The notes: generated by a model not told the origin, from the sequence alone. Positions 2,121 to 34,823 are shown, counted from the stretch's first letter. The stretch: DNA of 64,000 nucleotides from Abditibacteriota bacterium (GCA_017445025.1 JAFSVJ010000009.1:1536-65535), one strand, 5' to 3'. Translations and numbers: made by a program.

Positions 2121-4952
2121 TCATGACAGTTTCCAATTAATCTTTAAAAAGTAGGTTTCACTTTCCCGTCTGTCTTTTGTGACAGCCCAAACAGCAATTT
2201 TACTGTCTTCCAAAATAAGGTTTACTCTTGTGGGATTGTCAAACTCATAAACCCAAAAGCCATCCTTATACTCAAAGAGACAATCCATTCCCCATATAGG
2301 ACAATTGTAAACTCCCTCAAGTTCTTCATAAGGCACATTAACTTTACATTTTATTATATTTTTCTCATTGGGATAGATAATATTATCATCATTAATTATG
2401 GCCTCGGTAATCTTTATGGAAGTGTCTAAAACAGGTGCGTTGTAATTTCCTGTTTCTCTGTCATAACCATAGAAAGCCATAGGAATGTTTTCATATTGAA
2501 GATACAACTCTCCGGCGGTAGTTTGTATTTCATTTATTTCATTCCACTTAACCTTATCTGTAATATCGGCAAAATAAACAAGTTTTATATTACAAAGAAA
2601 AGTCTCGAGTGTTAAAGCAACATCCTCTCCGTTTAAGGTTATTTTTGGCATCTCTCCTTCAATAAAAACACATAGCCACAGCCTGTCGGGACGATACCAC
2701 ATAATGTTTGATAAGATGTGATTTTTGCTGCAATGATTAAGTTTATCACCAACCTTTATAATTTCATCGGTTATATTATAACTATCAATTATCTTCTTTA
2801 TCTCACCTGAGGCAAAAAACGAACCTTTCCCCGCCTTTGTGGGAATATAAGTAGGTAATTTGGGTCTCTCTCTCCTTTCATCCTCTATAAGCCTGTCCGC
2901 AAGTTCCAAAACCATAACAGAATATTCGGGAACAATAAGATCAATTTTATCATTATAAGAGGCTTCTTTAACGGGAAATCTTTCGGGATAGATATTGTTT
3001 ATACAAACTTCTCCTCCCGTAAACCCTACTCGCTCATTAAGAACAAAACTAAAATTAAGGGGTTTATAACCTGAATTAACAAGAAAGATAAAACCTTTGT
3101 TATCTATAAGTTTGGAATATCCTTCTACTCCCACACCCACATGTTCCCCAAAAGGAATAGTATTTTTGCTATACTCCCAATTCTCTCTTTGCCAATTAAC
3201 CCAATATTTATAAAAATCTAAAACTTCTTTATCTAAATACCTTGGTACAATAGGCAAAGTTAAGGAACCGCCGCAAGCTATAACAGATAAGAGAGCATAT
3301 TTATATCCGCAATAGTCAAAAAGTTTATCGCAATCAGGCTCGTTAAACCAACCGCAATCCTGTGTCATATGGAAGGTTAAACCATGGTTGAGAGTTTGGT
3401 GCATAAATCTAAAGTAATAATTCCAATTAGATTGAAATCTCATATCAGAGGCAGTTTGCCTGTCAGCTGACATATCCTCAAAGAGAGGTATATCACAAAC
3501 TATATGGGCTTCCCAATAGCCTTCATGTTGATCTATGTATTTATATCCCCACAAGCCATATCTCTTGTTTCCGTAAAAACCGATTATGTATAAATCGGGA
3601 AATTCTCTTTTAAGCTCTGCCATTATTCTTAAATGATTGCGAAAGCCTTTATACTCTCCTTTACCTTTGAGATGACCGTGATTTTCACTAAAACAATACA
3701 TACAGTCACCGGGACCCGGGTCCCAATTCCAAAGTTTTAAGTTATACTTTCTGATAGTATTTTTTTGAACTTCAATATACCAATGCAAGAATTCTTTTGA
3801 GCCTATACAGTTTTCACGGCTTATATCTCCAAAAACATCTATTTTTTTCCATTTTGGGTTATCTGTATAATTTGAGTGAGGGTCATTGCAACCCTTAACA
3901 TTTACACTGGCACCCATATAGATTCCTATGTCAAGACCTTTGTTTTTGGCATAATCATATATCTCTTCCGCAAGAGTGTTTTCAGGAAAAAGCTCCCAGT
4001 AGGAATTCAAATCTTCATTAGGTATTTTATTTTCACATAAGGGGTTAAAAATTATGAGTTCTATACCTAATTTGACACAATTATCTATATGTTTGAAATA
4101 TCTCTCTTTTATATCTTCACCGGGATTATAAGGAAGATTGGAAAAATTATCGTAAGAGATAAATTTAAAGGGCTTTTTATCTGTTTCAAAATAGGTTTTT
4201 GTATATTCGTTAAATTCATAAGTTTCGGAAAAATATAGGGGTATGCCCTCACTTGGATTTCTGAAACGGGTGTAGTATCTGTCCCCTACTTTTTGAGTGG
4301 CATATTTGATTTGCTGAACTACTTTTTCTCCCCAAAGCTCATATAATCCTATAAAGTTAATATCACAATCAAATTCTTCTTTTGGTTCAAGGATTAAGTT
4401 AGGTTCAAACTCCACTCTGTTGCCGGATAGGTAAAAATATGGATTTTCAAAACCAAAGAACAAGCCTTTCTTCCCCTCTCGTGCGAAGACAGCCCCGGAA
4501 CCATACAAAAAAGTCCTATACAAAAAAGCTTCATCATAAGAATCAATACTCATACCAATCTTATAAAGTTCTGTTTTTTCAAAAAACTTTAAAGATAATC
4601 GTCTTTTAATGAAATTTTTTCCACAGAGCAAATACTCTAATTTAAAGACTGCCTTTTCACTCATATAGATATAATAATTATCTTTCTTTTGAACAGATAA
4701 TTTTGACAAATCATATATTCCTTTATTTGTTTCAATATAGATATTATCAGAGTGAAAGTCTATATCAATTTTGTTATTATCTAATTTAGTAATAAAACCA
4801 TGCTCATTTAACAAATAATCCATAGTAATACCTTTTTTTAATGCAAAATGCTGTCCCCCTAAGCCGAATTCAAAAAAAGTCAAATGTTCATCAACCTGAA
4901 ACAAGACGAACTCACCATCCTTAAACCACAAATTGCAAAAATGACCTGCCAC
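2121..4952 (-). CDS. Large cytoplasmic hypothetical protein, possibly a glycoside-hydrolase-like enzyme; start uncertain (a GTG at 4952 lacks an RBS; alternative Met at about 4823)
   Basis: A 943-aa open frame. No signal peptide. Aromatic-rich Asp/Glu-containing blocks (WNWDPGPGDCMYCF, GIYMGASVNV) suggest a TIM-barrel sugar hydrolase. No family motif was confidently recognised. Confidence 0.45.
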   Translation of the reverse strand: MAGHFCNLWFKDGEFVLFQVDEHLTFFEFGLGGQHFALKKGITMDYLLNEHGFITKLDNNKIDIDFHSDNIYIETNKGIYDLSKLSVQKKDNYYIYMSEKAVFKLEYLLCGKNFIKRRLSLKFFEKTELYKIGMSIDSYDEAFLYRTFLYGSGAVFAREGKKGLFFGFENPYFYLSGNRVEFEPNLILEPKEEFDCDINFIGLYELWGEKVVQQIKYATQKVGDRYYTRFRNPSEGIPLYFSETYEFNEYTKTYFETDKKPFKFISYDNFSNLPYNPGEDIKERYFKHIDNCVKLGIELIIFNPLCENKIPNEDLNSYWELFPENTLAEEIYDYAKNKGLDIGIYMGASVNVKGCNDPHSNYTDNPKWKKIDVFGDISRENCIGSKEFLHWYIEVQKNTIRKYNLKLWNWDPGPGDCMYCFSENHGHLKGKGEYKGFRNHLRIMAELKREFPDLYIIGFYGNKRYGLWGYKYIDQHEGYWEAHIVCDIPLFEDMSADRQTASDMRFQSNWNYYFRFMHQTLNHGLTFHMTQDCGWFNEPDCDKLFDYCGYKYALLSVIACGGSLTLPIVPRYLDKEVLDFYKYWVNWQRENWEYSKNTIPFGEHVGVGVEGYSKLIDNKGFIFLVNSGYKPLNFSFVLNERVGFTGGEVCINNIYPERFPVKEASYNDKIDLIVPEYSVMVLELADRLIEDERRERPKLPTYIPTKAGKGSFFASGEIKKIIDSYNITDEIIKVGDKLNHCSKNHILSNIMWYRPDRLWLCVFIEGEMPKITLNGEDVALTLETFLCNIKLVYFADITDKVKWNEINEIQTTAGELYLQYENIPMAFYGYDRETGNYNAPVLDTSIKITEAIINDDNIIYPNEKNIIKCKVNVPYEELEGVYNCPIWGMDCLFEYKDGFWVYEFDNPTRVNLILEDSKIAVWAVTKDRRESETYFLKINWKLS

Positions 4953-12837: not shown

Positions 12838-14115
12838 ATGAAGAAACTTCTATTCACCCTTCTTGTGCTTATAATGGGATTATCTCTCTTTGCACAAGAC
12901 GCAGAGGAAAAACAAGAACCCTTTAAATTTTGGGGTTCTGTTGACGTTGACGTTATCAAAGGTGATGAATTGTATTTCAGAAACCCGGATGAATTTAAAT
13001 TAATGGGAAACCTTGAATTAAACGGAAACTACAAAATTAACGATCAGTGGGAACTTAACGGAACAGTTGTTGTAGGTAACTACCTAAAATCATTGGAATC
13101 TACTCCTCTTGAAAACATTCACCACATTTACTCCCAACTCTACTACTTAAACGCAAAGTATAAAAATGAAAACTGGGGAGATGTAAGCATAGGTTCCTTC
13201 GGCTTTAAAGTAAATCCATATGTTTTACAAAGAGTAACCAATGATGATTACTTCTCAAACCCACTCACACAAAGCGGAAACTACCCCCTCTTAGGTGTTA
13301 ATTGGAAAAACACCATAAACAATTTTTCTTACAACCTTTGGGGTGGAAGATTGGGCAAAAACGGTTTTGACGATGCCAACTTATACCTATATTCTTACAA
13401 TTTAGGTCAATTAAAAGACACTTATGGTGTAGATTTGGGTTATGACTTTGGTCCTGTTCAAATTAACGCTTTATGGTCTCACTTTACCGGTGATGCTGAT
13501 GAACTCGTTGACCCGGGTGCCGATAAGACAAATGTCTACGGTGGTGGTGTTAAAGTTCCCATCAAAAGTATAGATTCCATGGTTGCCGGTAACTACTACG
13601 CAAGAAAAGCCGATAACATTGATAACACAAAGATGTGGGATCTCTACTTTACAAAGAATTTCGGTAAATTCTACACCAAATTGGGATATATTTATGTTGG
13701 TGAACACTACAACGCTCCCGGTGACTGGATGATGCACACAAGAAACGGTAGCGGTATCAAGGGATGGCAACTTTACTGGAACGGACCTATTGCGGGCAAA
13801 TTCTCCACATACGGTTATTTTCACAAAGGTAAAGACTTTAACGAACTCACTGAAGGTCCTCTCTTTAAATCAAAGTTAGGTTTGATTTATACTTTTGATG
13901 AAAACAATAATATTAACTTTAACTGGACATACAAACACAGAAAAGCAGACGCAGTTGACAGTCATGTAATAGATAACTACTGGTTTATTGGTTTCACTCA
14001 CATATTTGACGAACACATGAAAATCAGTTTAAACTATGAACTTAACAGATTCAACTATGATATAGACGACGGAACAAAAGACATGTTCTACACTCAATTC
14101 ACTTATTCATTCTAA
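12838..14115 (+). CDS. Putative outer-membrane beta-barrel (porin-like) protein
   Basis: Signal peptide MKKLLFTLLVLIMGLSLFA. The composition is rich in Gly, Tyr and Asn with alternating residues. The C-terminus ...QFTYSF ends in an aromatic residue (Phe), which is typical of outer-membrane beta-barrels. RBS aaggag. Confidence 0.55.
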   Translation: MKKLLFTLLVLIMGLSLFAQDAEEKQEPFKFWGSVDVDVIKGDELYFRNPDEFKLMGNLELNGNYKINDQWELNGTVVVGNYLKSLESTPLENIHHIYSQLYYLNAKYKNENWGDVSIGSFGFKVNPYVLQRVTNDDYFSNPLTQSGNYPLLGVNWKNTINNFSYNLWGGRLGKNGFDDANLYLYSYNLGQLKDTYGVDLGYDFGPVQINALWSHFTGDADELVDPGADKTNVYGGGVKVPIKSIDSMVAGNYYARKADNIDNTKMWDLYFTKNFGKFYTKLGYIYVGEHYNAPGDWMMHTRNGSGIKGWQLYWNGPIAGKFSTYGYFHKGKDFNELTEGPLFKSKLGLIYTFDENNNINFNWTYKHRKADAVDSHVIDNYWFIGFTHIFDEHMKISLNYELNRFNYDIDDGTKDMFYTQFTYSF

Positions 14116-14118
14116 AAG

Positions 14119-14140
14119 AAGCTCGGGAAACCGAGCTTTT
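14119..14140 (+). terminator. Rho-independent terminator aagctcgg-gaaa-ccgagctt+tttt; left copy of a 22-bp perfect direct repeat (candidate attL-side island boundary)
   Basis: An 8-bp stem with a GNRA loop, 3 bp after the porin stop. The identical 22-mer recurs at 34824-34845. Confidence 0.6.
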
Positions 14141-14220
14141 ACTATTGATTTAGAGTCTTTTTCTGTATTTAAACTTACCCTTAATTATTTGTCATAAACT
14201 ACAAATAAACTACAACTTTT

Positions 14221-15248
14221 TTATATAAATTGCAATTTATCTATTGCTGCAATTAAATCCATTTTTGGTAATCGAGTATATACATCAAGGGTTACATCTT
14301 TATACTTATGACCCATGATCTTTTTAATTGCTATAATATCTACTTTATTTTTAAGCATGTAATATGAAAAACTTTGCCTACAATTTTTAGGAACATGATC
14401 AAAAGAATGTTTTGAAAAGATTTGACGCAATTTTGATTCTGAGAAATTAAATACACCTTGTTTAACTTCTTCTGTTATTTTAAGAATATCTTTATGTATT
14501 GGAACTACTCTGTTAATTCCGGCTTCTGTTTTACTACCGGTTATTATATAACGTTCGTTTAAGTGAAATTCACTTATTTTTGATATTTCATTAAATCTTA
14601 TTCCCGTATATAAATAAAAAAGTTGTAATTTACAGGACAATTCATCTTTGTTTTTCCAAAGTTCTTGTATCTCACCAACTGTATAATTATTCTCCTCTTT
14701 TTTCGCTTGTGAAGATGAAGAAATTGCAATTGACGTTGCGTAATTTTTGGTAGCCCAGTCTTTATTTACAGCATATTCTGATAATTTCACCAACATTGTT
14801 CTAACTTTGCTTTGCATGGGGTATCCATATTTTAAAGTCTTAAATAAATTTACATAATCTTGGTGTTTAATATCACTCATAAGTTTGTTATGTAAAACAG
14901 CACAATCTTTAAAAGCTATTTTAGTATCCTTCTTCCAACTTTTGCTTTTATTTCCAAAAATGGTTATATAGTTAAACCATTGTTTGAATGCAACCTCAAA
15001 TGTAATTAGGACTAGATCATCAGGGTGTTCCTTTTTACAATTTTTTAAGGCTTCTTTTGCTTCTTCTTCTGTTTGGTAGTTTCCTAATGTTTTTTGAATT
15101 CTTTTAATTGTGCCATCTTCAGAAATATTATATGTTTGCGGTAATACTACTCTCCATTGCTTTTTTAATTCCGGACGGTTTATCTTGAAAATAGATTCTT
15201 CGCCTTTTTGTCTTCTTTTATATTCTATTTTTTTCTAAGTCTACCCAT
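14221..15248 (-). pseudogene. Tyrosine recombinase / phage-type integrase, interrupted by a frameshift in an A7 homopolymer (T7 on the plus strand at 15228-15234)
   Basis: The C-terminal catalytic region has TGIRFNEI (Arg) and IMGHKYKDVTLDVYTRL (His, Arg, Tyr). The open frame continues 107 codons upstream of the annotated Met with no ATG. The ATG at 15248 (MGRLRKK) is restored to frame by a +1 A in the A7 tract. Confidence 0.75.
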
Positions 15249-15638
15249 TCAAAATCCTCAAAATAATAATTTACTCCTATATATACCAATAAATTTACAT
15301 AAATTGACTTTTGTTAATATTTTATTATATTTTTCTTTAGATAATGGTATTTTAATTTGAAAAAACATTTTGTGGTATAATAAAGTTTTTTTGTATGCAG
15401 TTTAATCTTACTGTTTATGATTTTATTGTTTTCATAGGAAACCAAGGTAGAGAGATTTTTCTTTACCTTTTTTTATTTTTTAAGTTTTTTATGATTTTTA
15501 TTAAAATAAAATCAAAAAACGCTGATTTAATTGAAGATTTAGATATTTATATTAAGAATCTAAAAGAATAATTTAGTATAATTAAAGTTAAGTTTTCTTA
15601 TTTTTCAAAAAATAATATATATTTTTTGTTTTAAACAT

Positions 15639-15663
15639 AAAAAAAAGACCTGTTGAGAGGTCT
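15639..15663 (-). terminator. Rho-independent terminator downstream of the Panacea-pair operon
   Basis: Minus-strand stem agacct-ctcaac-aggtct followed by T7. Confidence 0.55.
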
Positions 15664-15701
15664 GCTTTAGTTATATTGTTTATATAATTTTAATATTCTA
15701 T

Positions 15702-15998
15702 TTAAGTCGTTATCATTAAGTTTGCCTTCATAGAGTTATAATCAGTAATCTCTGAAATATCAAATTCCATATAAGAATCAAGTTTGATAAAGGTTTCTTT
15801 TGGAAATGGTGGATAATACTGTTCTATAAGATAGTTACTTTCAAAATATAATCTGCTTTCCTTTCCTCTTAATGAAGAAGCATTTAATACTCCTATTTTT
15901 GAACCTGTCACTTTAACAATTAGATAAAATCTGTTATATTCCGGAAAAGTCCCATCCTTAAACCTAAGTTTTGTGAATATTGCCTGTCCTACTTCCAT
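15702..15998 (-). CDS. Small hypothetical protein; candidate toxin partner of the upstream Panacea-domain protein
   Basis: A 98-aa ORF whose start overlaps the stop of the Panacea gene by 1 nt (ATGA). No motif recognised. Confidence 0.45.
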   Translation of the reverse strand: MEVGQAIFTKLRFKDGTFPEYNRFYLIVKVTGSKIGVLNASSLRGKESRLYFESNYLIEQYYPPFPKETFIKLDSYMEFDISEITDYNSMKANLMITT

Positions 15999-16642
15999 TA
16001 GTATGCTTGCACTTCTCCGTCATCAAGGAATAAAGACATTGCCACTTCATCTGTAACTAAAGAAAGATCATATAGCTTGTCATAATCTTTGTCTGTTAAT
16101 GTGATTTCTTTTGGGTTGTAGTAAAATCTCACACCGTTAATGACTTCATAAACCTCTTCTTTATCCCTATTTTCGTAAGTAGAAATAACCTTATAGGTTT
16201 TATCTATTTCCTTTTTTATTAATTCTGTAGGGATAACAGCATCACCGGGATTGGTTTTGGATGATTTTTTATATGTGTCATTCCAAAAATTAAAGGTGTG
16301 ATTAAGTTCGGAAAGTTCCTTTGCAGAATAATGACTGAAAATTTCATTGGTAAGTTCTAATACTTTATCGGTTTCTTTAGAGAAGTTTGGCTTAAAGGCA
16401 AGACTGTCTTTCAAAAAAGTATTAAAATTATCTTTAAATTTGAGACGAACATCTCCTATTACACAACCTTGTTTAAAGGCAAATATATTGTCTTTGTATA
16501 AAGGAGAGTTGTATAGTGATAGGTTTATCAGATATGCAAACAGAAGCAGTTTCTGCAATTTCATATTACTGTCAAAGTTAGACTGTTGAATATCAAGATT
16601 GGTTTTAACAAAGAATTTAGCTAAATCGTAAACATTTTCCAT
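15998..16642 (-). CDS. Panacea-domain (DUF4065, SocA/GepA-like) putative antitoxin
   Basis: ...MKLQKLLLFAYLINLSL...AFKQGCVIGDV matches the KLQKLLYfa...AWeyGPV core of DUF4065. Start set at MENVYD (16642), which has a strong AAGGAGG RBS, rather than the ORF-track start at 16666. Confidence 0.55.
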   Translation of the reverse strand: MENVYDLAKFFVKTNLDIQQSNFDSNMKLQKLLLFAYLINLSLYNSPLYKDNIFAFKQGCVIGDVRLKFKDNFNTFLKDSLAFKPNFSKETDKVLELTNEIFSHYSAKELSELNHTFNFWNDTYKKSSKTNPGDAVIPTELIKKEIDKTYKVISTYENRDKEEVYEVINGVRFYYNPKEITLTDKDYDKLYDLSLVTDEVAMSLFLDDGEVQAY

Positions 16643-17012
16643 AATAAACCTCCTTTTACTAACCATACTATTATACTATATTTTATTTATTTTGTCAAAT
16701 ATTAAACCAGCAATAATATATACTTATATTTTGAACCCAAAGTTCCCAAAGTAAGAATTAATATGTGTTTTTTCTGATTTTTGAGATTTAGGGTCAAACT
16801 GTCAAAATTAATGAACAATTTTTAAAAACTATAAAAAAACTGTTTTTTTAGTGGATTTTTGTAGTAAAAATATAGTATAATATATTGAGAGATATTTAAA
16901 ACAGCTTTCTTTTACGCCTATTATTATTAATTTGAAAAAACACTTAAAATATTATATAATAATTATGTGTATCTAATTATAAATAATAGTATAATTTAGT
17001 TATAAAGTAAAA

Positions 17013-18887
17013 ATGACAGACGAGAAGCCTTTTGAGTTAAAATTGAATAATGACAAATATGTGACAATAGATGAACTAACAAAAATAGATTTAGCCGGAA
17101 CTAAGCCTATTGATTTTGTTATAGGTAATAATCCACCGGTTTCTGTTAAGTTTTGGCGTTTATTATTAAGTAAAACCGTAGATGAACTCATAAAACTATA
17201 TCCACATAAAGATATATTGCACTTTTCCTCTGCCAATACAAGAATGCTATTATTTTCTTATAACAAAGAGGATTTACACAGAGGTGAACTATTATCTAAT
17301 GGTTTGTTTTTGGAAACCTGTTTTAGCTCTAATAAAGTAGTTGAATTAATCAAAGCTTTTTTTGATTTCTTCGGGTATAAAGGTGAGTATTTATTAAATT
17401 ACAGACGGGAGAGAACTCCTTCTATACAAAGAAGAAATCAAAAATTAAATATTGTTGAAACAAGTAATGAACAAAATTTTAATAAAGAAAATATAAATAA
17501 TTCATTTGAATTATATGATAAAGAATTAATAGATATAGCTAATGTTATATTAGAAGAAAAGTTTTCTAATGCTTTTAGATTAAATTCAAATATTGCTAAA
17601 AATAAGTTTAGGAGGGCTTATTTTGATTTATTGGGTAAAGAGTTAATAGAAGAGTTTAATATAGATGATTTAATTAAGACTTTAGGAGTTGTTTTTGAAG
17701 ACAAAGTATATATAATATCATCAAAAGCAAAAGATATTTTAAGTGAATTAATTAATGAAGCAATAATAAATAATAATAATATAATTTATTATAAAGATTT
17801 TTATGATAAGAATAGTTCAATTCTTTCTTCTTTAAACATTTTCAATTATGAAATATTAAAAAAAGTAATTCAGTCATATTTTGAAAATCTATTTATTGAT
17901 ACTCATTTTTTTAAACCATTGGAAGATAATAATTTAGTTAATGATTTAGTTGAATGCTTTAAAGGGAAAGACATGTTGTCTATATATGAAATAAAGAATA
18001 AACTATTATATACTGATATTAATCACATTAAAAGAATGTTACAATTAGATAAGAATTTTGTATTTGCCAAAAGATATAATTATATGTATGTAGAAAACTT
18101 ATCTATTTCTACAGATGATGTTGAAGAAAGTAAGAAAATAATAGAAAAATCCTTTACTGACAAAGGAACAGCCAGTTTATCCGATATAGTTGTTAATAAT
18201 AGTATAAATTTAAACTATAATGCAACTGAAAATGCTTTACGAGAGGCAATATTCATTAAATGTTTATCTAATATGTGTGACAGAAACAGATCCATATTAT
18301 ATCCCAAGGGAAAAGATAAAATATCCGGTGCTTTATTAATGGAGGAATATTGTTTAAGTCATAATAAAGTCACTGTAGAAGAATTAGAAGAATATGAAAA
18401 CAAAATGACTGGTCATACTTATTTTTGGTTGATAAAAGCTATGAATAATATGATAAGAGTGGATCAAAAAACATTTGTTAGTTTTGATTTAATTGAATTC
18501 GATATTGAAAAAACTAATGAAGCTATTGGAAGATTTATATATGATAAGATAGTTCCCTTTAAGAAAATAGATAGTTTTATTGGGTTTCCTGAAGTGGAAG
18601 GATATATTTGGAATAAATATTTATTAGCTTCTTTTTGTTTACATGTAAGTAATAAATATAATTCTTGGCATAAATTTGCTAAGAATGATATTTTAGGTGG
18701 AATATATCCTAATACAATGGAGATAGATAGTTATAATGACTTTTTATATTATGTGGTATTAGAAAACAATATACCATTAACTAATGAATCTATTAATCTT
18801 TTTTTAAAAGATAATGGTTATATAAAGAAAAACATAAATACAGATTGGATAATATCTAAAATTAACGAATATAAGGAAGTAAATTAG
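17013..18887 (+). CDS. Uncharacterised 624-aa protein, first gene of the defence operon; translationally coupled to the downstream BrxP-like gene
   Basis: No recognisable motif and very N/K/I-rich. Its TAG stop overlaps the GTG start of the next gene (tagtg at 18885-18889). Confidence 0.5.
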   Translation: MTDEKPFELKLNNDKYVTIDELTKIDLAGTKPIDFVIGNNPPVSVKFWRLLLSKTVDELIKLYPHKDILHFSSANTRMLLFSYNKEDLHRGELLSNGLFLETCFSSNKVVELIKAFFDFFGYKGEYLLNYRRERTPSIQRRNQKLNIVETSNEQNFNKENINNSFELYDKELIDIANVILEEKFSNAFRLNSNIAKNKFRRAYFDLLGKELIEEFNIDDLIKTLGVVFEDKVYIISSKAKDILSELINEAIINNNNIIYYKDFYDKNSSILSSLNIFNYEILKKVIQSYFENLFIDTHFFKPLEDNNLVNDLVECFKGKDMLSIYEIKNKLLYTDINHIKRMLQLDKNFVFAKRYNYMYVENLSISTDDVEESKKIIEKSFTDKGTASLSDIVVNNSINLNYNATENALREAIFIKCLSNMCDRNRSILYPKGKDKISGALLMEEYCLSHNKVTVEELEEYENKMTGHTYFWLIKAMNNMIRVDQKTFVSFDLIEFDIEKTNEAIGRFIYDKIVPFKKIDSFIGFPEVEGYIWNKYLLASFCLHVSNKYNSWHKFAKNDILGGIYPNTMEIDSYNDFLYYVVLENNIPLTNESINLFLKDNGYIKKNINTDWIISKINEYKEVN

Positions 18888-21238
18888 TGGCACGGTATAT
18901 ATATGATTCTGAAACAGGTGGTATTCTGCTTCAGTATTTTGATGGAATAACATCTAACGAACCAAGACCTGTATATGCAACAGAGTTAAATATATTGGGA
19001 GTTGATGAATATTGGGATTATGAAAATCAAGATGATATCCCTTATATGTGGGCTGAGGCTAATCACTATTATTATAAAGGTATAAAAATATTTGACACTA
19101 AAGGTGGTAACCTTTATGAAAAGCCCAAAATTGAAATAATATATCAAAAAACTGAAAAAGAGAAGTTAACAGAAAATCCTGTTTTACCTTTTCATACTAA
19201 ATTAGATAAAATAAAAATCAAAGAAATGTGTGAGAAGAATAAGGAAGAATTAAATATATTAGAGCAATTAACTTGTAAAAAAATATATAATGAGTATTGC
19301 AAATATAAAGATAAACTTGATTGTTTTCATGTAGCTTTTAGTGGTGGTAAAGATAGTATTGTATTATTGGAACTTGTTAAAAAAGCTCTTCCTAAAAGCA
19401 GTTTTATTGTTTTATTTGGTGATACTCAAATGGAATTTCCGGATACTTATAAGATTATAGATATAGTAGAAGAGGGATGTAAAAAAGAGGGCATTGAATT
19501 TTATAGGGCCAAATCTCATCTAAAACCGGAAGAGAGTTGGAGATTATTTGGGCCTCCTTCAAGAGCATTAAGGTGGTGTTGTTCAGTTCATAAATCTGCT
19601 CCTCAGACTTTAAAATTAAGAGAAATATTAGGTAAAAAAGATTATATTGGAATGGATTTTGTAGGTGTTAGAGCTTTTGAAAGTTCAACCAGGGCTACCT
19701 ATGAAGAAGAGAATTTTGGAAAAAAACAAAAAGGCCAATATTCTTTTAATGCAATACTAAATTGGACTTCCGCCGATGTGTGGTTGTATATATATTCTAA
19801 TAATTTACCTATAAATGAAGCTTATAAAAAAGGCAATTCTCGTGCAGGATGTTTGTTTTGCCCAATGGGTGGTGGAAAAGGAGATTTTTTTCAGTATTAT
19901 TCATATTCTAAAGAAATGAATCCGTTAATATCAATAGTAAAAGACTTGTATATAAATGATACTGATAGTCAAGAAAAAATAAATTCTTATGTTTTTTCTG
20001 GTGGATGGAATGCTAGAAAAAATGGTAGGGATTTAACTATTTCTAAAAATAATTATAAAGAAGAAAAAATAGGACAAGACTTAATTATAACAATAAAGAA
20101 TCCTAGATCTGATTGGAGAGAATGGATTAAAATCTTAAGCAATTATAACTTAAATTATGATATTGTTAGTAATGATAATACTTTAAAAATAATTATTAAT
20201 GAAAATTCATTAGATAAAAATTTAGTTAAATATAGTAATAATTCTAAAGATTTATCTTTAAAAAGAGTATTTAAACAAGTATTTAAGAAAGCATCAAGTT
20301 GTGTGGGTTGTAAAGTATGTGAGGCTAATTGTCGTTATGGGCATATATCATTTAATGATGGTCTTAAAATTAATGGTTGTATACAATGTTATGAATGTCA
20401 AGATTTAGTAAATGGTTGTTTACTGTATAATTCTTTAATAATACCAACAGGAGATAAAAGAAAATTGAGTATTAATTCTTTTGCTAATCACGCACCTAAG
20501 CCAGAATGGATAAAAGATTTTGTCCAAAATTATAAAAATAATGTTGATTTTTGGTCTAATAATACATTAGGTCCTCAACAAATACCTAGATTTAAAAAGT
20601 TTGTTAAAAGTTGTGGCTTTTTAGATAATTCAAATAAACCAACAAAATTATTAAACTTATTATCAAATAAAAGATATAATTCAATTGATATTTGGGGTAT
20701 TGCTTATGCGAATTTTGCTTATAATACGCAAAGTCGATGGTATATAGAAAATATGGAAATAGATACCATTTACACTCGTGATAAAATCTCAGATATGCTT
20801 GTTGAAGAAGGATTAAGTAGAGATGATTCTACTTCAGTTATTAATGCATTTAAACGTTTTTGTGATATACCTTTTGGTGTTTATCTTAAATTTGGCAATG
20901 TTAAATTAAGTAATAAGACTATAAAGACATTGTCAAGAACAAAGACTTCTTTAGATAATAATAATAAGTTAGTTCTTTTATATTCTTTATATAAATATGC
21001 TGAAGAATGTGGTGATTATTATCAATTTAGCTTATCTACTTTAATGGATATGACTATAAAGTCTAAGGGTATAAGTCCTGTGAAAATATTTGGTTTTAGT
21101 CGTGATGAAATGGAAGTTATGCTTAGTGGATTGTCAAGCAAATACACAGATTTTATTGATTACACGCCTACTCATGGTTTAGAAAAGATAACCTTAATGG
21201 ATTATCATACTTCACAGGACGTTTTAGATTTATTTTAG
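18887..21238 (+). CDS. brxP: PAPS-reductase-domain protein, BrxP-like (DndC-like ATP pyrophosphatase fold plus Cys-rich C-terminal region)
   Basis: FHVAFSGGKDSIVLLEL is the PP-loop SGGKDS motif of the PAPS reductase/DndC family. Downstream cysteine clusters (CLFCPMGGGK; CVGCKVCEANC...CIQCYEC) follow. GTG start. Confidence 0.65.
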   Translation: MARYIYDSETGGILLQYFDGITSNEPRPVYATELNILGVDEYWDYENQDDIPYMWAEANHYYYKGIKIFDTKGGNLYEKPKIEIIYQKTEKEKLTENPVLPFHTKLDKIKIKEMCEKNKEELNILEQLTCKKIYNEYCKYKDKLDCFHVAFSGGKDSIVLLELVKKALPKSSFIVLFGDTQMEFPDTYKIIDIVEEGCKKEGIEFYRAKSHLKPEESWRLFGPPSRALRWCCSVHKSAPQTLKLREILGKKDYIGMDFVGVRAFESSTRATYEEENFGKKQKGQYSFNAILNWTSADVWLYIYSNNLPINEAYKKGNSRAGCLFCPMGGGKGDFFQYYSYSKEMNPLISIVKDLYINDTDSQEKINSYVFSGGWNARKNGRDLTISKNNYKEEKIGQDLIITIKNPRSDWREWIKILSNYNLNYDIVSNDNTLKIIINENSLDKNLVKYSNNSKDLSLKRVFKQVFKKASSCVGCKVCEANCRYGHISFNDGLKINGCIQCYECQDLVNGCLLYNSLIIPTGDKRKLSINSFANHAPKPEWIKDFVQNYKNNVDFWSNNTLGPQQIPRFKKFVKSCGFLDNSNKPTKLLNLLSNKRYNSIDIWGIAYANFAYNTQSRWYIENMEIDTIYTRDKISDMLVEEGLSRDDSTSVINAFKRFCDIPFGVYLKFGNVKLSNKTIKTLSRTKTSLDNNNKLVLLYSLYKYAEECGDYYQFSLSTLMDMTIKSKGISPVKIFGFSRDEMEVMLSGLSSKYTDFIDYTPTHGLEKITLMDYHTSQDVLDLF

Positions 21239-21249
21239 GAGTTTTCATA

Positions 21250-24200
21250 ATGAAGAAATATATAGATTACTTTGATATTGATCCTTCTTATTATCCGGAA
21301 ATTAATCCCGATTCAATTAAAGACCAAAAGTGGTATAGAACAACTCCACATAAAACTTTTATTGATGTTTTGAAACAAGTTGAAAGAACATTAAGTAGAG
21401 AAACAACAGAAGCTTGCAAAGGAATATGGATAGAAGGTTCATATGGAACAGGAAAGTCAAGAGTTATATGGACTATAGATAATATTTTGACTTGTTCTAA
21501 CGAGGAATTGAGTAAATACTTTAATAGCTATGCTCTTTTACAACAAGAAAAAGATTTACTTAATAAGATAAATGCTCTTAAATCCGGAAAAATACTAACT
21601 GTTTATAAATATAAATCCGGTGATATAGATAATATTAATAAGCTTATTATCAAAATATATGAAAGTGTTACCAAAGCATTAAAGAATAATAAATTTGATT
21701 ATATTGGAAAAGATACAATACGTGGAAAAATAGTTTCTTTTTTAGAAGAAGATGAAGAGAATAGGAACATCTTTGCTCAATTAATAAATAAACCAAAATA
21801 TAAGTCGTTAGGTAGTCTAAACGGAAAATCTGTTAGTGAGATTATCAAAATATTAAAAAATACTAATCAAAATGCTGAGGATTTAGTTAATGATATCATA
21901 AAGATATCAGATGATAATATTAATCTTTTTTCTTTAGATATGGATGATTTGAAATCATGGATATCAGAAGTGTTATCAGAGAATAAAGATAAAGGATTAA
22001 AAGCTATAGTATTATTATGGGATGAGTTTTCAGCATTTTTCAAGAAAAATAAAGATTCTCTTGATGTTTTTCAATCATTAGCTGAATTATCAAATAATGA
22101 TCCTTTCTATTTGATTATAGCAACTCATGAAAGTTCTTCTATAGTATCTCCGGAAGAAAAAGCTTCTTTTAAAGTTATTTCTGACAGATTTAATCATTTT
22201 AATATTAAAATGCCAAACTCAACTGCATTTGAATTGATTGCAGATGCAATGGATATAAAAAAAACTTCTAAATCTGAATATGAAATACTAACATCTGAAT
22301 TAAATGACAATATGAAAAAATCAAGGGAAGCTGTATGTAGGTTAAATGACAAGGATATAATTAGTGAAGAAACTATGAAAAGATTATGTCCTATTCATCC
22401 TATGACGGCTCTTTTATTAAAGCATATATCTACTTTTTTTGCGTCAAACCAAAGAAGTATGTTTAATTTTATTAAAGATAATGATAGTGATAAACTAAAA
22501 GCTTTTCAGTGGTTTATTAATAATTATTCTCCTGAAGATGGTCAACTTTTAGCCGTAGATTTTTTATGGGATTTCTTTTATAATTATGGAACAACTGATC
22601 ATAGTTCTTTTTCAGGCAGAGCAAATTTAGATATAATTATAGCTAATATTCTTGACACCTATCCAAGGGAAGAAAAAAAACTTAATAATGAGCAAAAAAG
22701 AGTCTTAAAAGCTGTTTTAATGATGCTTGCTATAAACAAAAGATTAAATAATAGTGTTGAATTATTAATTCCTAATGATAAAAATATTAAAATGGTATTT
22801 GAAGGAGATGATAATTTAGAAGATAAAGCTGTAAATATTGTTAAAAACTTTTTTGTAGATAATTTTAAAATACTTTATATTGATAAAGATGAAAATAATC
22901 AAGATGTTTATAAAGTTAATATGCCTGGTGAAGAACAAGAAATATTAAAGATAAAAGAAAGGTTACTTCAAGAAGTTAAAACAATTAATATATTAGAATC
23001 CGGTGAAAATTCTATACTTTCATCTATTTCTTTTCCTAATAAGATTAACATAAGATATAAATTTTATTATCTAACAGTTGATAATTTTACAAAAAAACTT
23101 AATAAAATTGCCGAAGAAGAAACTAAACTTTTTAAAGCTGTTTTATGTTTTGCCAGAAATAAAAATGAACAATTAATTATCAATAATAAAATAAAAGAAG
23201 CAATAAAAGATGATATATTTAAAGATATTGTTTTTGTAGATATGTCTAATAATTTATTAAGTGATGATAAATTTAACAATTTTATAGATTACAGTGCAAG
23301 AGAAGAATACTGGCGAGGAAAAGATGATAGTTTAGCTGATGAAAAGAAAAGAAACAAAGAAATGATTCTTGATGATTGGGCTAATGATATTAATAATGGA
23401 GAGTATAAAGTATCTAATGTTAAAAATGCATATGCTAAAGATTGTAATTCATTTGATAGTTTAAAAGAAGCATTAGTAGAAATAGTATTAAAGTATTATC
23501 CTTTGGTATTTGATAATTATAAAATTGCTGAACCTTTATTTAATTCTTCTGACTTTAATATTGGAATTTTGTGTGGGTTAGGAATATCTAATAAAAAAGG
23601 AGATAAATATTACAGCGTTTATCAAGAAAAAGATATTAGAATGATCTTAGGAAAACTTGTTGATGATGATAATTATTGGATTACAGATAAAAGCCATAAT
23701 ATATCTCAAATAAAGATAAAATTAGATGAATATATTCAAAATGAATTTGATAGAAATAATAAGGTTTCTATAGGTGATATATTTGATTTCTTAATGGGTC
23801 TTGGGTTTATATATAATAATTTATATGCATATTTGACCGGATTTTTATTAAAGGGTTATTCCTGCAGACCCTATCGTTATAGTATAGGTTTAGAAGGAGA
23901 AAATGGTGGTGAAATAGATCCTAATAAACTTGCTGAATTTGTTAGTGAATATATGAAATTTAAACAAACTGGTAAAAATGAACCAAAAATTAAATATATT
24001 CAAATAATGACAGATAATCAACGAGAATTTTTAAGTTTTATTAATTCTTCCTATGGTGTTGATAAAGATTTGTCTGTTGAACAAGCAGTAATTCACTTAA
24101 GAAATAAACTTTTGAGTATAGGTTATCCGTTATGGGTTTATAAAACAATTGATGAAAATGGATTAAGTGACTACATTGATAAGTTAAGTAATATAGTTAA

Positions 24201-25461
24201 TACAGATCGAAGTCAAAACGTTGCTGATTTAGTTGAACAATTTGGGAAACAATTAGTGAATAATACTAATTTAGCAATTAATTTAAAGGCATTACTTACA
24301 TTAGAGAAAGGTAAAGAAGCTATGGATACCTTTTTAGATACTTTTGAAGCAGGTTCTATAAAAACATTAGCTAAAGAAATTAGAGTAATTGATTATATTA
24401 AGGAAGTTCAAGAAACTATCAGTAAAGGTATAAAAGCATGGTTATGGAACGAAGAAGATGGTAAAAAAGAGTTAAGAAAATTAATTCTTGATTATAAGAT
24501 TATTGCTAAAAGTAATAATATTATTGATAGGACAAATTGTTTTTCTGATTGTATTGCTAAATGGAAAGAATTCTTTGAACATAATATTAAATTACCTTAT
24601 TCAATTGTTATGGTAGAATATAATGAATTATCTGATTTTTTTGATTGTATAAAAGAATCAATATCTTCTGCCATGAATATTATTAGTTATGAGAGTAGGC
24701 AAAAGTTTTTTGATGCAATATCTAATAATGAAAATACAATAATTAATATTAATGAAAGATGTAAAGAACTATTAAAAAATAAGTTTATAACATTTGTTAC
24801 TGATTTCTCTGATGATGATATAGAAAATTTATATATTAGTCTTTCTAATGATTCTTTTATAAAATCAGAATCAGAATTTTATCAAATTATTAAAAGAGAA
24901 GCTAATCTTATACAAAATCGTTTATTGAGAAACAAAATAGTATCCAAATGGAAAGAATTAACTAATACAGCATCTTCTAAAGAATGGTGTAATAAATACA
25001 GGTGTCCTATATTAATTATGATTGATGATGCTGAATTCAATGATGCTAAAGACCTATTTACTGTTTTGGATGAAAGTTTTAAATTTAATGATAGTATGTT
25101 ACAGAGAGTATTAGAGTTTATTGAAAAAAAACCTAAATTTATTTTTAAAATAAATAATAAAACAGAAATTGATAAAGTTTTTAGTAATAAAATGATTCGT
25201 GAATATCAAGTTATAATAGATGATGTAGAAGATCTAAAGAATAAACTATCTTCAATAGACTCAAATTATTATAATTGGTATGGCAATCAAGTTATAAATG
25301 ATGCTATTAGAGAGTTTGCTCAAGATAAATATCTTAATGGAGGCTTTGAAGAAATCAAAAATGATATTCAGGGAAAAACAGCAGATGAAGTTAAAAGCCT
25401 TTTATTAGATTTAATTTCAAATAATGTTGATGCAGGAATATTAGTAATAAAGAAAAGGTAG
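21250..25461 (+). CDS. brxC: Giant P-loop ATPase, BrxC/PglY-like
   Basis: 1403 aa with an N-terminal Walker A (GIWIEGSYGTGKSRV) near residue 60 and a long alpha-helical remainder. Size and architecture are typical of BrxC. RBS aggag. Confidence 0.6.
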   Translation: MKKYIDYFDIDPSYYPEINPDSIKDQKWYRTTPHKTFIDVLKQVERTLSRETTEACKGIWIEGSYGTGKSRVIWTIDNILTCSNEELSKYFNSYALLQQEKDLLNKINALKSGKILTVYKYKSGDIDNINKLIIKIYESVTKALKNNKFDYIGKDTIRGKIVSFLEEDEENRNIFAQLINKPKYKSLGSLNGKSVSEIIKILKNTNQNAEDLVNDIIKISDDNINLFSLDMDDLKSWISEVLSENKDKGLKAIVLLWDEFSAFFKKNKDSLDVFQSLAELSNNDPFYLIIATHESSSIVSPEEKASFKVISDRFNHFNIKMPNSTAFELIADAMDIKKTSKSEYEILTSELNDNMKKSREAVCRLNDKDIISEETMKRLCPIHPMTALLLKHISTFFASNQRSMFNFIKDNDSDKLKAFQWFINNYSPEDGQLLAVDFLWDFFYNYGTTDHSSFSGRANLDIIIANILDTYPREEKKLNNEQKRVLKAVLMMLAINKRLNNSVELLIPNDKNIKMVFEGDDNLEDKAVNIVKNFFVDNFKILYIDKDENNQDVYKVNMPGEEQEILKIKERLLQEVKTINILESGENSILSSISFPNKINIRYKFYYLTVDNFTKKLNKIAEEETKLFKAVLCFARNKNEQLIINNKIKEAIKDDIFKDIVFVDMSNNLLSDDKFNNFIDYSAREEYWRGKDDSLADEKKRNKEMILDDWANDINNGEYKVSNVKNAYAKDCNSFDSLKEALVEIVLKYYPLVFDNYKIAEPLFNSSDFNIGILCGLGISNKKGDKYYSVYQEKDIRMILGKLVDDDNYWITDKSHNISQIKIKLDEYIQNEFDRNNKVSIGDIFDFLMGLGFIYNNLYAYLTGFLLKGYSCRPYRYSIGLEGENGGEIDPNKLAEFVSEYMKFKQTGKNEPKIKYIQIMTDNQREFLSFINSSYGVDKDLSVEQAVIHLRNKLLSIGYPLWVYKTIDENGLSDYIDKLSNIVNTDRSQNVADLVEQFGKQLVNNTNLAINLKALLTLEKGKEAMDTFLDTFEAGSIKTLAKEIRVIDYIKEVQETISKGIKAWLWNEEDGKKELRKLILDYKIIAKSNNIIDRTNCFSDCIAKWKEFFEHNIKLPYSIVMVEYNELSDFFDCIKESISSAMNIISYESRQKFFDAISNNENTIININERCKELLKNKFITFVTDFSDDDIENLYISLSNDSFIKSESEFYQIIKREANLIQNRLLRNKIVSKWKELTNTASSKEWCNKYRCPILIMIDDAEFNDAKDLFTVLDESFKFNDSMLQRVLEFIEKKPKFIFKINNKTEIDKVFSNKMIREYQVIIDDVEDLKNKLSSIDSNYYNWYGNQVINDAIREFAQDKYLNGGFEEIKNDIQGKTADEVKSLLLDLISNNVDAGILVIKKR

Positions 25462-25465
25462 TATT

Positions 25466-27619
25466 ATGGAAGATTTTGAATCTGTTAAAATAAATATCGA
25501 TAATTATTTTTCTAGTAAAGAACCCTTCCCTTTCTTCCTTTCAATTAATGGGACTGAAGAATATAAAGAAGTATTAAACCAATATCCCGGTATACAAAAA
25601 ATATATATAAGTGATTATTGTAATGAAGATTCTTTTATTGATTCTGATAAATTAATTAATTATCTTTCTCAAAATAATAGTAAATGCTTATTATTGGGGT
25701 TGGGTGATTATATTAGTCTGTCTTATGATACTAATATTTTTGAAAGAATCAGTAATTTATGCATTAGTGGAAAACTATTAGTTTTGTGTAAAGGAATAAA
25801 AAACTTTATTAATAGTCAATCATCTATTGATGATAAATTTGATAACAGAAGGTATTATATAGTGAATTCCTCTTGTCATAATAATACTATTATTAAAGTT
25901 AAATTTGATATTGAGTATAATAATGCAATTTATGGTTTTAAACAATTACTTAAGAAAATGGAAAATTGTGACGATAGTAAATTTATAGTTAGAACTGAAT
26001 TGCATATAAAAAATGATTATGAGATAACTTCATATTATGATGCATTAAAGTATGAAAAAAAGATATCCAATATTACTGAAGATGTATTATCACAAGACCT
26101 ATGGAAAGAATTTTATAAGGATGAAAGACTTACCGATTATAAAATTAGCCATTGGAGGTTTTACTTAAAAGTATTATTGAACGGAACAAAGGATGAATAT
26201 TTATGTGAAGTTATTAAAAAATCCCCAAATTATGATACATATAAGCAGCAGATTTATAATTGTATTTTAGATATTGATTGTTCTGATAAAAGGTTTGATT
26301 TATTATATGAAAAAAGAAAAATATTGTTAAAAGACTTAAACAAGAATGCTCCAGAATTAGATGAATATTTGTTGAGAACGAAGGATAAGAGTAAAGATAG
26401 GGTTTATTATTTAACAGATAATACAGATAAAGAGAAATATGAAATTATTGAGGAAATATGTAAATTTAAAGAAATACCTAAAAATTTAATAAATATTTAT
26501 CCTGATTTAAATAAGTATCTTCAAAATTATAAATTTGAAACTACAGATAGTGAAATATATACAGAATATTTCAATCAATATAAAAAACAAAAACTTTTGA
26601 ATTATATTGAGCCAGAGTTTTTAAATAAAGTAATAGACTTAGCTAATAAAAGAATATACAATACACTTGAAACAAATTATTCTGTTATAGAAAAGTATAA
26701 AAATGGGAATAATTTTCTATATTGGATAGACGCTTTAGGAGTAGAATTTCTTGGTTATATTCAAAAAAAAGCTTATGATAAAGGATTAAATATAAATTTT
26801 ATAATTGCAAGGTGTATTTTACCTTCTCTGACTAGTTTAAATTCTTTTTTTTACAATGAATGGAAGGGAAAGAAAACTGCAAACAAAAATTTAGACAAAA
26901 ACAAGCATGAAGGTGATAATAGATTTAATTATTTAAATAAAAAGACTCCTATTCATTTAGTTGAAGAATTAAAAATAATATCAGAAGCGTTAGATTTTGC
27001 AAAAAGTGAATTAACACAGCATAATTTCGAAAAAGTAATTATTGCTTCAGATCATGGCTCTAGTCGATTGGCAGTAATTAATGAACAAGAGAATAAATGG
27101 GTAATGAAAACAAAAGGAGAACATTCTGGAAGATGTTGCCCTGTTGACGAATTATCTGAAAAACCTGAAGTTGCAACTAACGAAAATAATTATTATGTGT
27201 TGGCTAATTATGATAGATTTAAAGGTGGACGAAAAGCAAGTGTTGAAGTTCATGGTGGAGCTACACTTGAAGAGGTTTTGGTTCCTATTATTGAGATATC
27301 ATTATTGTCCGGTAATATAGATTTTCCGTTGGATTATGAACCGAAAATAATAAAGTGTGGACCAGAACATAAACCTGAAATAACATTATTTGTCCCCGTT
27401 AAGTCTAATAATGTAATACTTAGAATAAACAGTTATAATTACAATGCAACTCCAATTGATGATTCACACTATAAGGTTGTTTTAGATGATATAGTTAATA
27501 CCGGTGAGTATACAGCTGATGTTATTGTTGATAATAATATTAAAGGTTCAATAACATTTAAAACACAAAATATAATTGCTAGTTCAAATGATAGTGATTC
27601 TTTTTTTGAAGATTTTTAA
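25466..27619 (+). CDS. pglZ: PglZ-like alkaline-phosphatase-superfamily protein
   Basis: 717 aa. VIIASDHGSS and EVHGGATLEEVLVPII resemble the metal-ligand DHG and HGG motifs of the alkaline phosphatase/PglZ clan. Position directly after the BrxC-like gene fits BREX order. Confidence 0.5.
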   Translation: MEDFESVKINIDNYFSSKEPFPFFLSINGTEEYKEVLNQYPGIQKIYISDYCNEDSFIDSDKLINYLSQNNSKCLLLGLGDYISLSYDTNIFERISNLCISGKLLVLCKGIKNFINSQSSIDDKFDNRRYYIVNSSCHNNTIIKVKFDIEYNNAIYGFKQLLKKMENCDDSKFIVRTELHIKNDYEITSYYDALKYEKKISNITEDVLSQDLWKEFYKDERLTDYKISHWRFYLKVLLNGTKDEYLCEVIKKSPNYDTYKQQIYNCILDIDCSDKRFDLLYEKRKILLKDLNKNAPELDEYLLRTKDKSKDRVYYLTDNTDKEKYEIIEEICKFKEIPKNLINIYPDLNKYLQNYKFETTDSEIYTEYFNQYKKQKLLNYIEPEFLNKVIDLANKRIYNTLETNYSVIEKYKNGNNFLYWIDALGVEFLGYIQKKAYDKGLNINFIIARCILPSLTSLNSFFYNEWKGKKTANKNLDKNKHEGDNRFNYLNKKTPIHLVEELKIISEALDFAKSELTQHNFEKVIIASDHGSSRLAVINEQENKWVMKTKGEHSGRCCPVDELSEKPEVATNENNYYVLANYDRFKGGRKASVEVHGGATLEEVLVPIIEISLLSGNIDFPLDYEPKIIKCGPEHKPEITLFVPVKSNNVILRINSYNYNATPIDDSHYKVVLDDIVNTGEYTADVIVDNNIKGSITFKTQNIIASSNDSDSFFEDF

Positions 27620-27629
27620 GGATTAAAGT

Positions 27630-30945: not shown

Positions 30946-32032
30946 GCTAATAATGGCATGTGCCGGTTCCGGAAAAACTACTTATTTGATAGAACGAGCT
31001 TTAAAAATAAAGGACAAAAGCATATTAATTACTACATATACTAATTCTAATGAACAAGAGATAAAGAATAAATTTATAGATAGAATAGGTTATATCCCAA
31101 AAAATATAACTATCCAAACTTGGTTTTCATTCTTATTACAGCATTGGGTTAGACCTTATCAAAGTGTAATATATGATTGTGACATCAAAGGAATAGATAT
31201 TTCAGATAAAAAATCTACTAAATATGTAACAGAAAACAATGCTAAAGAATATTATTTTAATAGTAAAAATGAAATATATCGAGATAATCTCTCTAAATTT
31301 GCTTTTAAAGTAAATGAAAAAACTGAAGGAAAACTTATAGCCAGATTAGAAAAAATATATCAATATATTTTTATTGATGAAATTCAAGATTTGGCAGGAT
31401 ATGATTTAGATTTAATAAATGAAATAGTTAATTCTAGTATTTGGTTAATAATGGTTGGTGATAGAAGACAAACTGTTTATATTACACATTATGAAAAACG
31501 CAATGAAAAATATAGAGGAAAAATTGATGAATATGTGATAGATAAACTAACAAATAAAGTTTACATGGATGTAAAATCCTTATCTAATAGTTATAGATGT
31601 AATCAAAAAATATGCGATTTTGCTAATGATGTTTTTAAAGATTTGCAACCTATGAAATCGTCAAACAAACAAAAAACAGAACATGATGGTGTTTTTTTAG
31701 TTAGACCTTGTGATATAAATGATTATTTGATTAAGTTTAGTCCTGTTCAGCTACGATATAGCAAATCTATAAAGGTAAATATAAATTATAAAGCTTATAA
31801 TTTTGGTGAATCAAAAGGTTTAACTTTTGATAGAGTATTAATATATCTAACTAAAAATCAAACTGATTGGTTAAAAAATCATACTATAAAGTTAAAAGAG
31901 CCGGAAAAATTATATGTTGCTATTACAAGAGCTAAATATAGTGTTGCAATTGTATTTGATGAATTAGATAAATATCAACCAAAACATACAGAAGTGTATC
32001 CTTATAAAAGAGATTTATTTACACTTGATTAG
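30935..32032 (+). CDS. Compact UvrD/PcrA-like SF1 helicase, GajB-like
   Basis: Motif I ACAGSGKTT, Ia TYTNSNEQEI, II FIDEIQD, III MVGDRRQT, V GESKGLTFDRV, VI VAITRAKYSV. Overlaps the OLD-like gene by 11 nt. Confidence 0.6.
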   Translation: MKSKLIMACAGSGKTTYLIERALKIKDKSILITTYTNSNEQEIKNKFIDRIGYIPKNITIQTWFSFLLQHWVRPYQSVIYDCDIKGIDISDKKSTKYVTENNAKEYYFNSKNEIYRDNLSKFAFKVNEKTEGKLIARLEKIYQYIFIDEIQDLAGYDLDLINEIVNSSIWLIMVGDRRQTVYITHYEKRNEKYRGKIDEYVIDKLTNKVYMDVKSLSNSYRCNQKICDFANDVFKDLQPMKSSNKQKTEHDGVFLVRPCDINDYLIKFSPVQLRYSKSIKVNINYKAYNFGESKGLTFDRVLIYLTKNQTDWLKNHTIKLKEPEKLYVAITRAKYSVAIVFDELDKYQPKHTEVYPYKRDLFTLD

Positions 32033-34790: not shown

Positions 34791-34823
34791 AAACTACAAA
34801 TAGAATACAAATTGTGTTTAAAA

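Follow-up and report, generated by a model that had tools for sequence, protein, structure and literature searches.

A Panacea-domain antitoxin gene overlapping the frameshifted gene of a predicted MazF/PemK-fold toxin in an Abditibacteriota genomic island

The window, a stretch of 64,000 nt, carries two overlapping genes that we read as a type II PanA–PanT toxin–antitoxin (TA) cassette. Its toxin would be a divergent endoribonuclease of the MazF/PemK fold and a predicted member of the published toxin cluster T23, and the copy found here is probably inactive or weakened; we put the probability of this reading at roughly 0.75. It draws on the gene structure, the domain membership of the antitoxin, the fold of the toxin family, an arginine conserved within that family, the conserved pairing of the two genes and a frameshift near the 3′ end of the toxin gene.

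Results

Gene layout and operon signals

An earlier sequence-only reading of this DNA had called two ORFs at the site, of 214 and 98 aa, and both are present on the minus strand (16642 to 15998 and 15998 to 15702, respectively). We regard them as real genes and not as chance ORFs, because the large protein has 118 homologues and the small one belongs to a family with 127 representatives. Judged from the promoter, the ribosome-binding site, the coupled junction and the terminator listed below, panA and panT are predicted to form one operon.

16670–16698, minus strand: promoter-like site of the panA–panT operon, deduced from the sequence; −35 element TTGACA at 16698–16693, spacer of 17 nt, −10 element TATAAT at 16675–16670
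16649–16655, minus strand: putative Shine–Dalgarno element AAGGAGG, 6 nt 5′ of the panA ATG at 16642
15998–16642, minus strand: panA, Panacea-domain antitoxin gene, 214 aa; matches PF13274 and is full length compared with its homologues
15996–16000, minus strand: TAATG stop/start junction; the panA TAA (16000–15998) shares A15998 with the panT ATG (15998–15996), a 1-nt overlap
15702–15998, minus strand: panT, gene of the putative MazF/PemK-fold toxin, 98 aa as read here; assigned from the family profile and the fold of a homologue
15638–15663, minus strand: predicted intrinsic terminator; hairpin AGACCTCTCAACAGGTCT (15663–15646), then T8

The promoter-like site matches the sigma-70 consensus at 12 of 12 positions, is the best such site of the region and places the predicted transcription start at about 16663. 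The longest ORF of panA opens at ATG 16666 and encodes 222 aa, the alternative ATG at 16642 giving the 214-aa protein. We favour the 214-aa start because of the predicted transcription start, the spacing of the AAGGAGG element, which had been picked out as a strong ribosome-binding site from the outset, and the starts of the homologues, which lie at the aligned ‘MRDVYD...’ position.

An overlap between the two genes had also been described, in the form of ATGA. The overlap is there, a single nucleotide long, but the junction reads TAATG instead. With its shared A, this junction implies that translation of panT may be coupled to that of panA, and the motif T(A/G)ATG is kept in nearly all of 30 related loci. 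At the other end of the operon, the terminator begins 3 nt past the stop codon (15669–15667) of the unshifted panT frame. A search of 14000–17100 with Rfam returned no RNA families.

Conserved pairing of the two genes

That the small gene is the toxin partner of PanA was initially a proposal, which the neighbourhoods of its homologues support well. In all the longer loci examined (L001–L007), the gene directly upstream of the toxin homologue codes for a PanA homologue, and in one of these (L003) the pair adjoins an integrase. Among loci from species-representative genomes, PanA of the same subtype is found directly upstream in 24 of 25; the hosts are Lachnospiraceae, Oscillospiraceae and other Clostridia (Bacillota), Synergistaceae, Gastranaerophilales and Thermosediminibacter, and so belong to several phyla. 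The pair is also carried by the Clostridium tetani prophages phiCT19406B and phiCTC2B and by a C. botulinum type D phage and plasmid, the first of which leads to the published cluster T23 discussed below.

The toxin family

Taken alone, the 98-aa protein yields nothing meaningful against Pfam, NCBIfam and PADLOC (one spurious leu-leader match) and no match to PF02452 even at E ≤ 1. Its description as a protein devoid of recognisable motifs therefore holds for searches with the single sequence; it fails at the level of the family, where the protein appears as a distant MazF/PemK homologue. A word-indexed protein search with the window PanT finds only three relatives. The family was revealed solely by an exhaustive HMMER profile search, with 127 representatives (clusters at 50% identity), a number to be read as a lower bound; 65 of them are found at E ≤ 1e-10, and a length of 110–150 aa is typical.

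Intact relatives are 110–155 aa long. Their alignment contains nearly invariant G, G, R, K (within S-S-x-x-G-K-E), N, P-P and D (within K-L-D-S). The window PanT is homologous to the family over residues 1–88 and keeps R23, S41/S42, G45-K46-E47, N55, P63-P64 and D74.

The structure of an intact homologue, P0003, which is 51% identical to the window PanT, was modelled with AF2. The model obtained with an alignment of 80 sequences is confident (pLDDT 96.1, pTM 0.89), and only with that alignment; an alignment of three sequences gave a pLDDT of 44.5.

A frameshift at the 3′ end of panT

The 98-aa ORF is present as first described, but it derives by frameshift from a gene for a protein of about 110 aa, a point missed by the sequence-only reading. 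Two features define the shift.

15736–15737, minus strand: frameshift site; GATTATAACTC in the window, GATTATAAACTC in L008, a relative with 91% identity; one A is missing from the window (AAA to AA)
15667–15735, minus strand: displaced 3′ end of panT; the other frame encodes LYEGKLNDNDLNRILKLYKQYN and ends at the stop 15669–15667

The displaced segment LYEGKLNDNDLNRILKLYKQYN, with its stop, corresponds to the C-terminus of P0002, a relative with 91% identity, and the final 10 residues of the window PanT (the NSMKANLMITT region) are read out of frame. Putting back the missing A would give a PanT of 110 aa. The deletion of one nucleotide swaps out the last ~22 residues of the protein, including the conserved C-terminal helix: the lost segment has the family consensus G-x-x-L-x-x-x-E-L-x-x-I and corresponds to helix 100–114 of the P0003 model. 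Because of the frameshift, the window PanT lacks this helix.

The same 1-nt deletion occurs in a metagenome contig from a different ENA sample (L009). As this assembly is independent, the deletion is a true allele rather than an error of assembly. Programmed frameshifting was considered as a way of reaching the shifted 3′ end and rejected, since the site, TAT AAC TCT, is no slippery heptamer and the close relative has the extra A.

We consider it fairly probable that the window PanT is disabled or weakened in its toxicity. panA itself is intact in the window despite the frameshift in panT; with its toxin gene truncated in this manner, the cassette may have ceased to work as a TA pair.

Alternatively, the cassette could still work fully as a TA or abortive-infection unit, the 98-aa PanT remaining toxic and the frameshift trimming only a dispensable tail. 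The nearly invariant core residues are indeed all intact in the window PanT, as are panA, the promoter, the ribosome-binding site and the junction. In addition, the 98-aa form recurs in five contigs and in no fewer than two independent assemblies; being present in several assemblies, it appears stably inherited and could keep some function. Against this stand the conservation of the lost segment across the family and the confidence with which it forms a C-terminal helix in the model, the length of the intact relatives and the position of the terminator, which immediately follows the stop codon of the unshifted frame. Structures of MazF and CcdB have their C-terminal helix packed on the barrel and the dimer interface, which further argues against its being dispensable. 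The occurrence of other decayed toxin copies points in the same direction: one has no start codon (L031), one is a remnant (L035) and one has its 5′ end replaced (L008). Altogether, we judge a fully working unit unlikely, while taking it more seriously than the other rivals below, and retain the reading of a cassette with a disabled or weakened toxin.

The decayed copies differ from one another. In L031 (~2989–3228) the toxin start codon is ACG and the ORF has just 70 aa; L035 (1607–1807; Gemmiger formicilis) holds a 66-aa toxin remnant without panA; the copy in L026 (2980–3279) is 99 aa long. In L008 (1–526; ENA ERZ28653829) the 3′ end of the toxin is intact, its first ~20 codons are replaced by unrelated sequence and there is no panA upstream; either this toxin copy decayed by another route, or the short contig is a chimera. 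Loss of the toxin with retention of panA seems to recur across genomes.

Fold and likely activity of PanT

Sequence profiles connect the family to MazF-type toxins. Compared with the PDB, the PanT family profile finds Staphylococcus aureus MazF (4of1, E = 5e-6; 4mzm, E = 1.2e-5), followed by Bacillus subtilis EndoA and B. anthracis PemK/MoxT (E ~0.006–0.012). The Pfam family PemK_toxin (PF02452) is matched individually by 16 of 83 members, with a best E of 1.6e-6. With B. subtilis MazF, hhalign aligns the family over 102 columns at E = 2.9e-4. In that alignment, the nearly invariant arginine of the family falls on the catalytic R25 of MazF, and the column of the catalytic Thr48 is variable, with a conserved Ser-Ser pair 2–3 residues upstream. 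The variability of the Thr48 column suggests that the chemistry or the substrate may differ from those of MazF.

The predicted structure agrees with the profiles. A structure prediction had been suggested for the small protein; carried out on its intact homologue P0003, it gives a MazF-type fold, at odds with the motif-less description. The first 49 matches of the model in a Foldseek search of the PDB are all of MazF type (MazF, EndoA, MoxT), with TM scores of 0.62–0.72 and a probability of 1.00; Escherichia coli CcdB comes at rank 50. From profiles and model together, we place the PanT family among the distant members of the MazF/PemK fold family, a homology visible only at the level of the family profile and of the fold.

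The rank of CcdB calls for a comment, as the fold, an SH3-like barrel, is common to CcdB and MazF, and a CcdB probability of 99.0% by HHpred is given for T23 (PMC8832971). The small protein could accordingly be a CcdB-like poison of DNA gyrase, sharing the barrel with a different target, and not an RNA-cutting enzyme. However, the 49 better structural matches are all of MazF type and the sequence profiles match only MazF, PemK and EndoA: CcdB (PF01845) is absent both from the Pfam matches of the 83 members and from the PDB profile matches, and hhalign relates the family to E. coli CcdB with E = 0.18 over 15 columns only. The catalytic arginine of MazF is conserved, and the validated MazF-like PanTs block translation, not replication (PMC8832971). 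A gyrase poison is therefore very improbable, and PanT is most likely an RNase that would act by cleaving RNA.

One family member, from phiCT19406B (L036 2501–2968; KM983331.1 36600–37067), is annotated as ‘xkdS-like protein’ and has the MazF fold by homology. Its gene is located near attR, flanked by the lysis genes on one side and the Cro/CI module on the other. We rejected the annotation, which is the name of a PBSX tail protein, given the MazF fold and the lack of any such Pfam match in the 83 members.

The PanA antitoxin

The identification of the 214-aa protein as a DUF4065 (Panacea) protein came with the proposal of a PF13274 search, and is supported by it: the SocA_Panacea model scores 36.1 bits against a gathering cut-off of 25.7 (E = 1.3e-8), the match spanning residues 29–120 and model positions 1–112 of 113. 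The core motif cited for DUF4065 is present as well, as MKLQKLLLFAYL. The 118 database homologues are mostly 217 aa long.

Aligned with 21 homologues, PanA divides into two parts, a Panacea/SocA-like core (~1–155) and a C-terminal module of ~55 aa (residues ~160–214; 15998–16162, minus strand). The module is acidic and conserved, with the pattern E-x-x-N-G-x-x-F-Y-Y ... L-V-I-Y. E166 is nearly invariant, N169-G170 invariant and F173 conserved; the terminus is aromatic, of the L-V-I-Y type. The module has no match in Pfam, and no sequence relative of known structure was found in the PDB for it or for full-length PanA. It is possibly a dedicated toxin-binding domain.

That PanA would instead be a SocA-type (type VI) protease adaptor, which delivers the toxin to ClpXP and does not block it by binding, is scarcely credible: the Panacea domain is named after SocA and the NCBIfam SocA equivalog model NF047745 does align to residues 25–155, but with 27.6 bits, so far under the cut-off of 190 that PanA is no SocA equivalog, and neutralisation by published PanAs requires neither ClpXP nor Lon and proceeds in stable PanA:PanT complexes, one of them demonstrated for the MazF-like pair of P. 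moraviensis (PMC8832971).

Proposed mechanism

In the type II cassette that we favour, a bicistronic mRNA would be made from the single consensus sigma-70-type promoter. A strong ribosome-binding site would drive translation of panA, to which that of panT would be coupled through the TAATG junction. PanT would then be held inactive through direct binding by PanA, the likely contact being the acidic C-terminal module, which is specific to this PanA subtype. Should PanA be lost or triggered, free PanT dimers could cut cellular RNA in a ribosome-independent manner and translation would stop; as a result, the mobile element would be stabilised or a phage infection aborted.

Rather speculatively, the C-terminal module might be the counterpart of PAD1, Phd-C or ZBD of other PanAs, with the Panacea core as the sensor. 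Extra domains of PanA often neutralise, and Panacea may be a sensor, according to Ernits et al. 2023 (PMC10440598); this view fits a neutralising role of the module here, without proving it.

More tentatively, three ideas can be combined: the module would be an undescribed domain that neutralises the MazF fold, the toxin would cut another RNA target, and orphan PanA would be kept for protection. We hold this combination to be possible and rather doubtful. The second idea comes from the family's own invariant set and its want of the canonical threonine, which suggest that the RNA target might be other than that of classical MazF. The third comes from the repeated decay of toxins whose PanA is retained (window, L031, L035), whereby an orphan PanA could guard against related cassettes borne by phages.

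Island context

The island and defence setting noticed at the outset is borne out. The cassette lies in a segment of low GC content at ~14–32 kb (24–29%, compared with 34–41% in the flanks), together with a short integrase-like ORF, BrxP, BrxC, PglZ and BrxL, and GajA and GajB.

The integrase-like ORF (14221–14880, minus strand) encodes 219 aa, of which only the last ~40 residues (163–204) match the Phage_integrase catalytic domain. No long ORF is found in the 800 bp upstream of it. As a recombinase, it is possibly short or degraded.

A type 4-like BREX gene set occupies 18887–29093 on the plus strand, with BrxP (783 aa, PAPS reductase; PADLOC, 754 bits), BrxC/PglY (1403 aa), PglZ (717 aa; Pfam DUF7862–7864) and BrxL (487 aa). 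Ahead of brxP there is an ORF of 624 aa (17013–18887), whose stop overlaps the brxP start and which has no match in Pfam or PADLOC. Directly downstream of BREX, also on the plus strand, follows a Gabija pair (29323–32032). GajA has 540 aa, with AAA_15 and an OLD-type TOPRIM (PADLOC, 640.8 bits); GajB is short, a UvrD-like protein of 365 aa (420.7 bits). At the right end of the island, a gene for an 857-aa Big_2 (bacterial Ig-like) surface protein contains four tandem units of 243 nt (33288–34316, plus strand) with 62–68% identity.

An exact 22-nt direct repeat, AAGCTCGGGAAACCGAGCTTTT, which resembles a terminator hairpin, is present at 14119–14140 and 34824–34845, 20.7 kb apart. Just inside these copies there is a 45-nt repeat with 80% identity (14185–14229 and 34780–34824). 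The repeats bracket the low-GC island with the integrase, panAT, BREX, Gabija and the Big_2 protein, and are candidates for the island ends, attL/attR.

On either side of panAT, the sequence TTAATTTGAAAAAACA(T/C)TT occurs on the plus strand at 15352–15370 and 16927–16945, with a chance expectation of 0.01. Both copies sit within promoter-like TTGAAA...TATAAT sites of the plus strand, the right-hand one pointing at the BREX operon. The 19-nt repeat (15352, 16927) was rejected as marking the cassette ends, as it reflects two similar promoter-like sites.

Comparison with known systems

PanA and PanT were defined by Kurata et al. 2022 (PNAS, PMC8832971). Two of their PanTs, from P. moraviensis (T6, WP_083201923.1) and B. 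ruminantium (T25, WP_026646888.1), are MazF/PemK/EndoA-like by HHpred, without CDD hits; both are toxic, are neutralised by their own PanA and inhibit translation (PMC8832971). In Dataset S1 of that paper, the order is antitoxin then toxin, with gaps of −1 or −4 for the MazF-like clusters (PMC8832971). Panacea partners had been described as very diverse and often novel toxins, but the one here is not of a new type: it has a predicted MazF/PemK fold, and the window cassette is a further example of the published arrangement of PanA with a MazF-like PanT.

The pair of phiCT19406B (YP_009276959/YP_009276960) is listed in Dataset S1 as belonging to the predicted PanAT toxin cluster T23 (pT24), as is that of Virgibacillus proomii (WP_077317559/WP_077317558), whose toxin HHpred assigns to MazF at 99.67% (PMC8832971). 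T23 comprises 9 rows of Dataset S1, every one marked ‘notest’ (PMC8832971); the T23 accessions, searched for in the NetFlax 2023 supplements, are not present there. The phiCT19406B toxin matches the PanT family HMM over its full length (152.7 bits, E = 8.5e-49), and its PanA matches the HMM of the window PanA family with 179.9 bits, the C-terminal module being likewise present. Since phiCT19406B is in T23, these scores indicate that the window pair belongs to an already predicted PanAT cluster.

By itself, one more PanAT, apparently from an Abditibacteriota MAG, changes the known picture little. In metagenomes, the T23-type toxin cluster, with its 127 representatives (50% identity), far exceeds the 9 published RefSeq rows in size and is taxonomically broader. 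‘MazF/PemK-fold PanT toxin’ can take the place of two annotations, ‘hypothetical protein’ for the window gene and ‘xkdS-like protein’ for those of Clostridium phages. The window PanT is a natural frameshift variant and should not be counted, as it stands, as a functional TA or defence gene. Three leads remain: the C-terminal module of PanA, the conserved residues in which the toxin family departs from the canonical set, and the repeated decay of toxin genes beside a preserved panA.

With T23, the window pair shares the toxin family, the PanA subtype with its C-terminal module, the antitoxin-first order and the overlapping or abutting junction. It differs from T23 in that its toxin is ~30–35% identical to the Clostridium members and has 98 aa compared with their 150–155 aa, in that the copy is frameshifted, and in its host, an Abditibacteriota MAG and not one of the Bacillota. 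In size, the 9 rows of Dataset S1 compare with 127 cluster representatives found here in metagenomes.

With T6 and T25, the likeness lies in the Panacea antitoxin upstream of a small toxin, in a similarity to MazF/PemK/EndoA that emerges mainly from profile or fold comparisons, in the −1 or −4 overlap and in the translation inhibition to be expected; their toxins, however, form sequence clusters separate from that of the window pair.

Finally, the toxins of MazEF, PemIK and Kis-Kid (PF02452) resemble the window family in fold (TM 0.62–0.72) and in the arginine corresponding to R25 of B. subtilis MazF, and their operons in the antitoxin-first order and translational coupling. Contrary to these systems, whose antitoxin is a DNA-binding protein of MazE/AbrB or RHH type, the window pair has an unrelated Panacea domain. 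The column equivalent to Thr48 is not conserved in the window family, and the window protein falls under the threshold of PF02452. The family has an invariant set of its own, SS-x-x-GKE, N, PP and KLDS, which sets it apart from the toxins of MazEF, PemIK and Kis-Kid.
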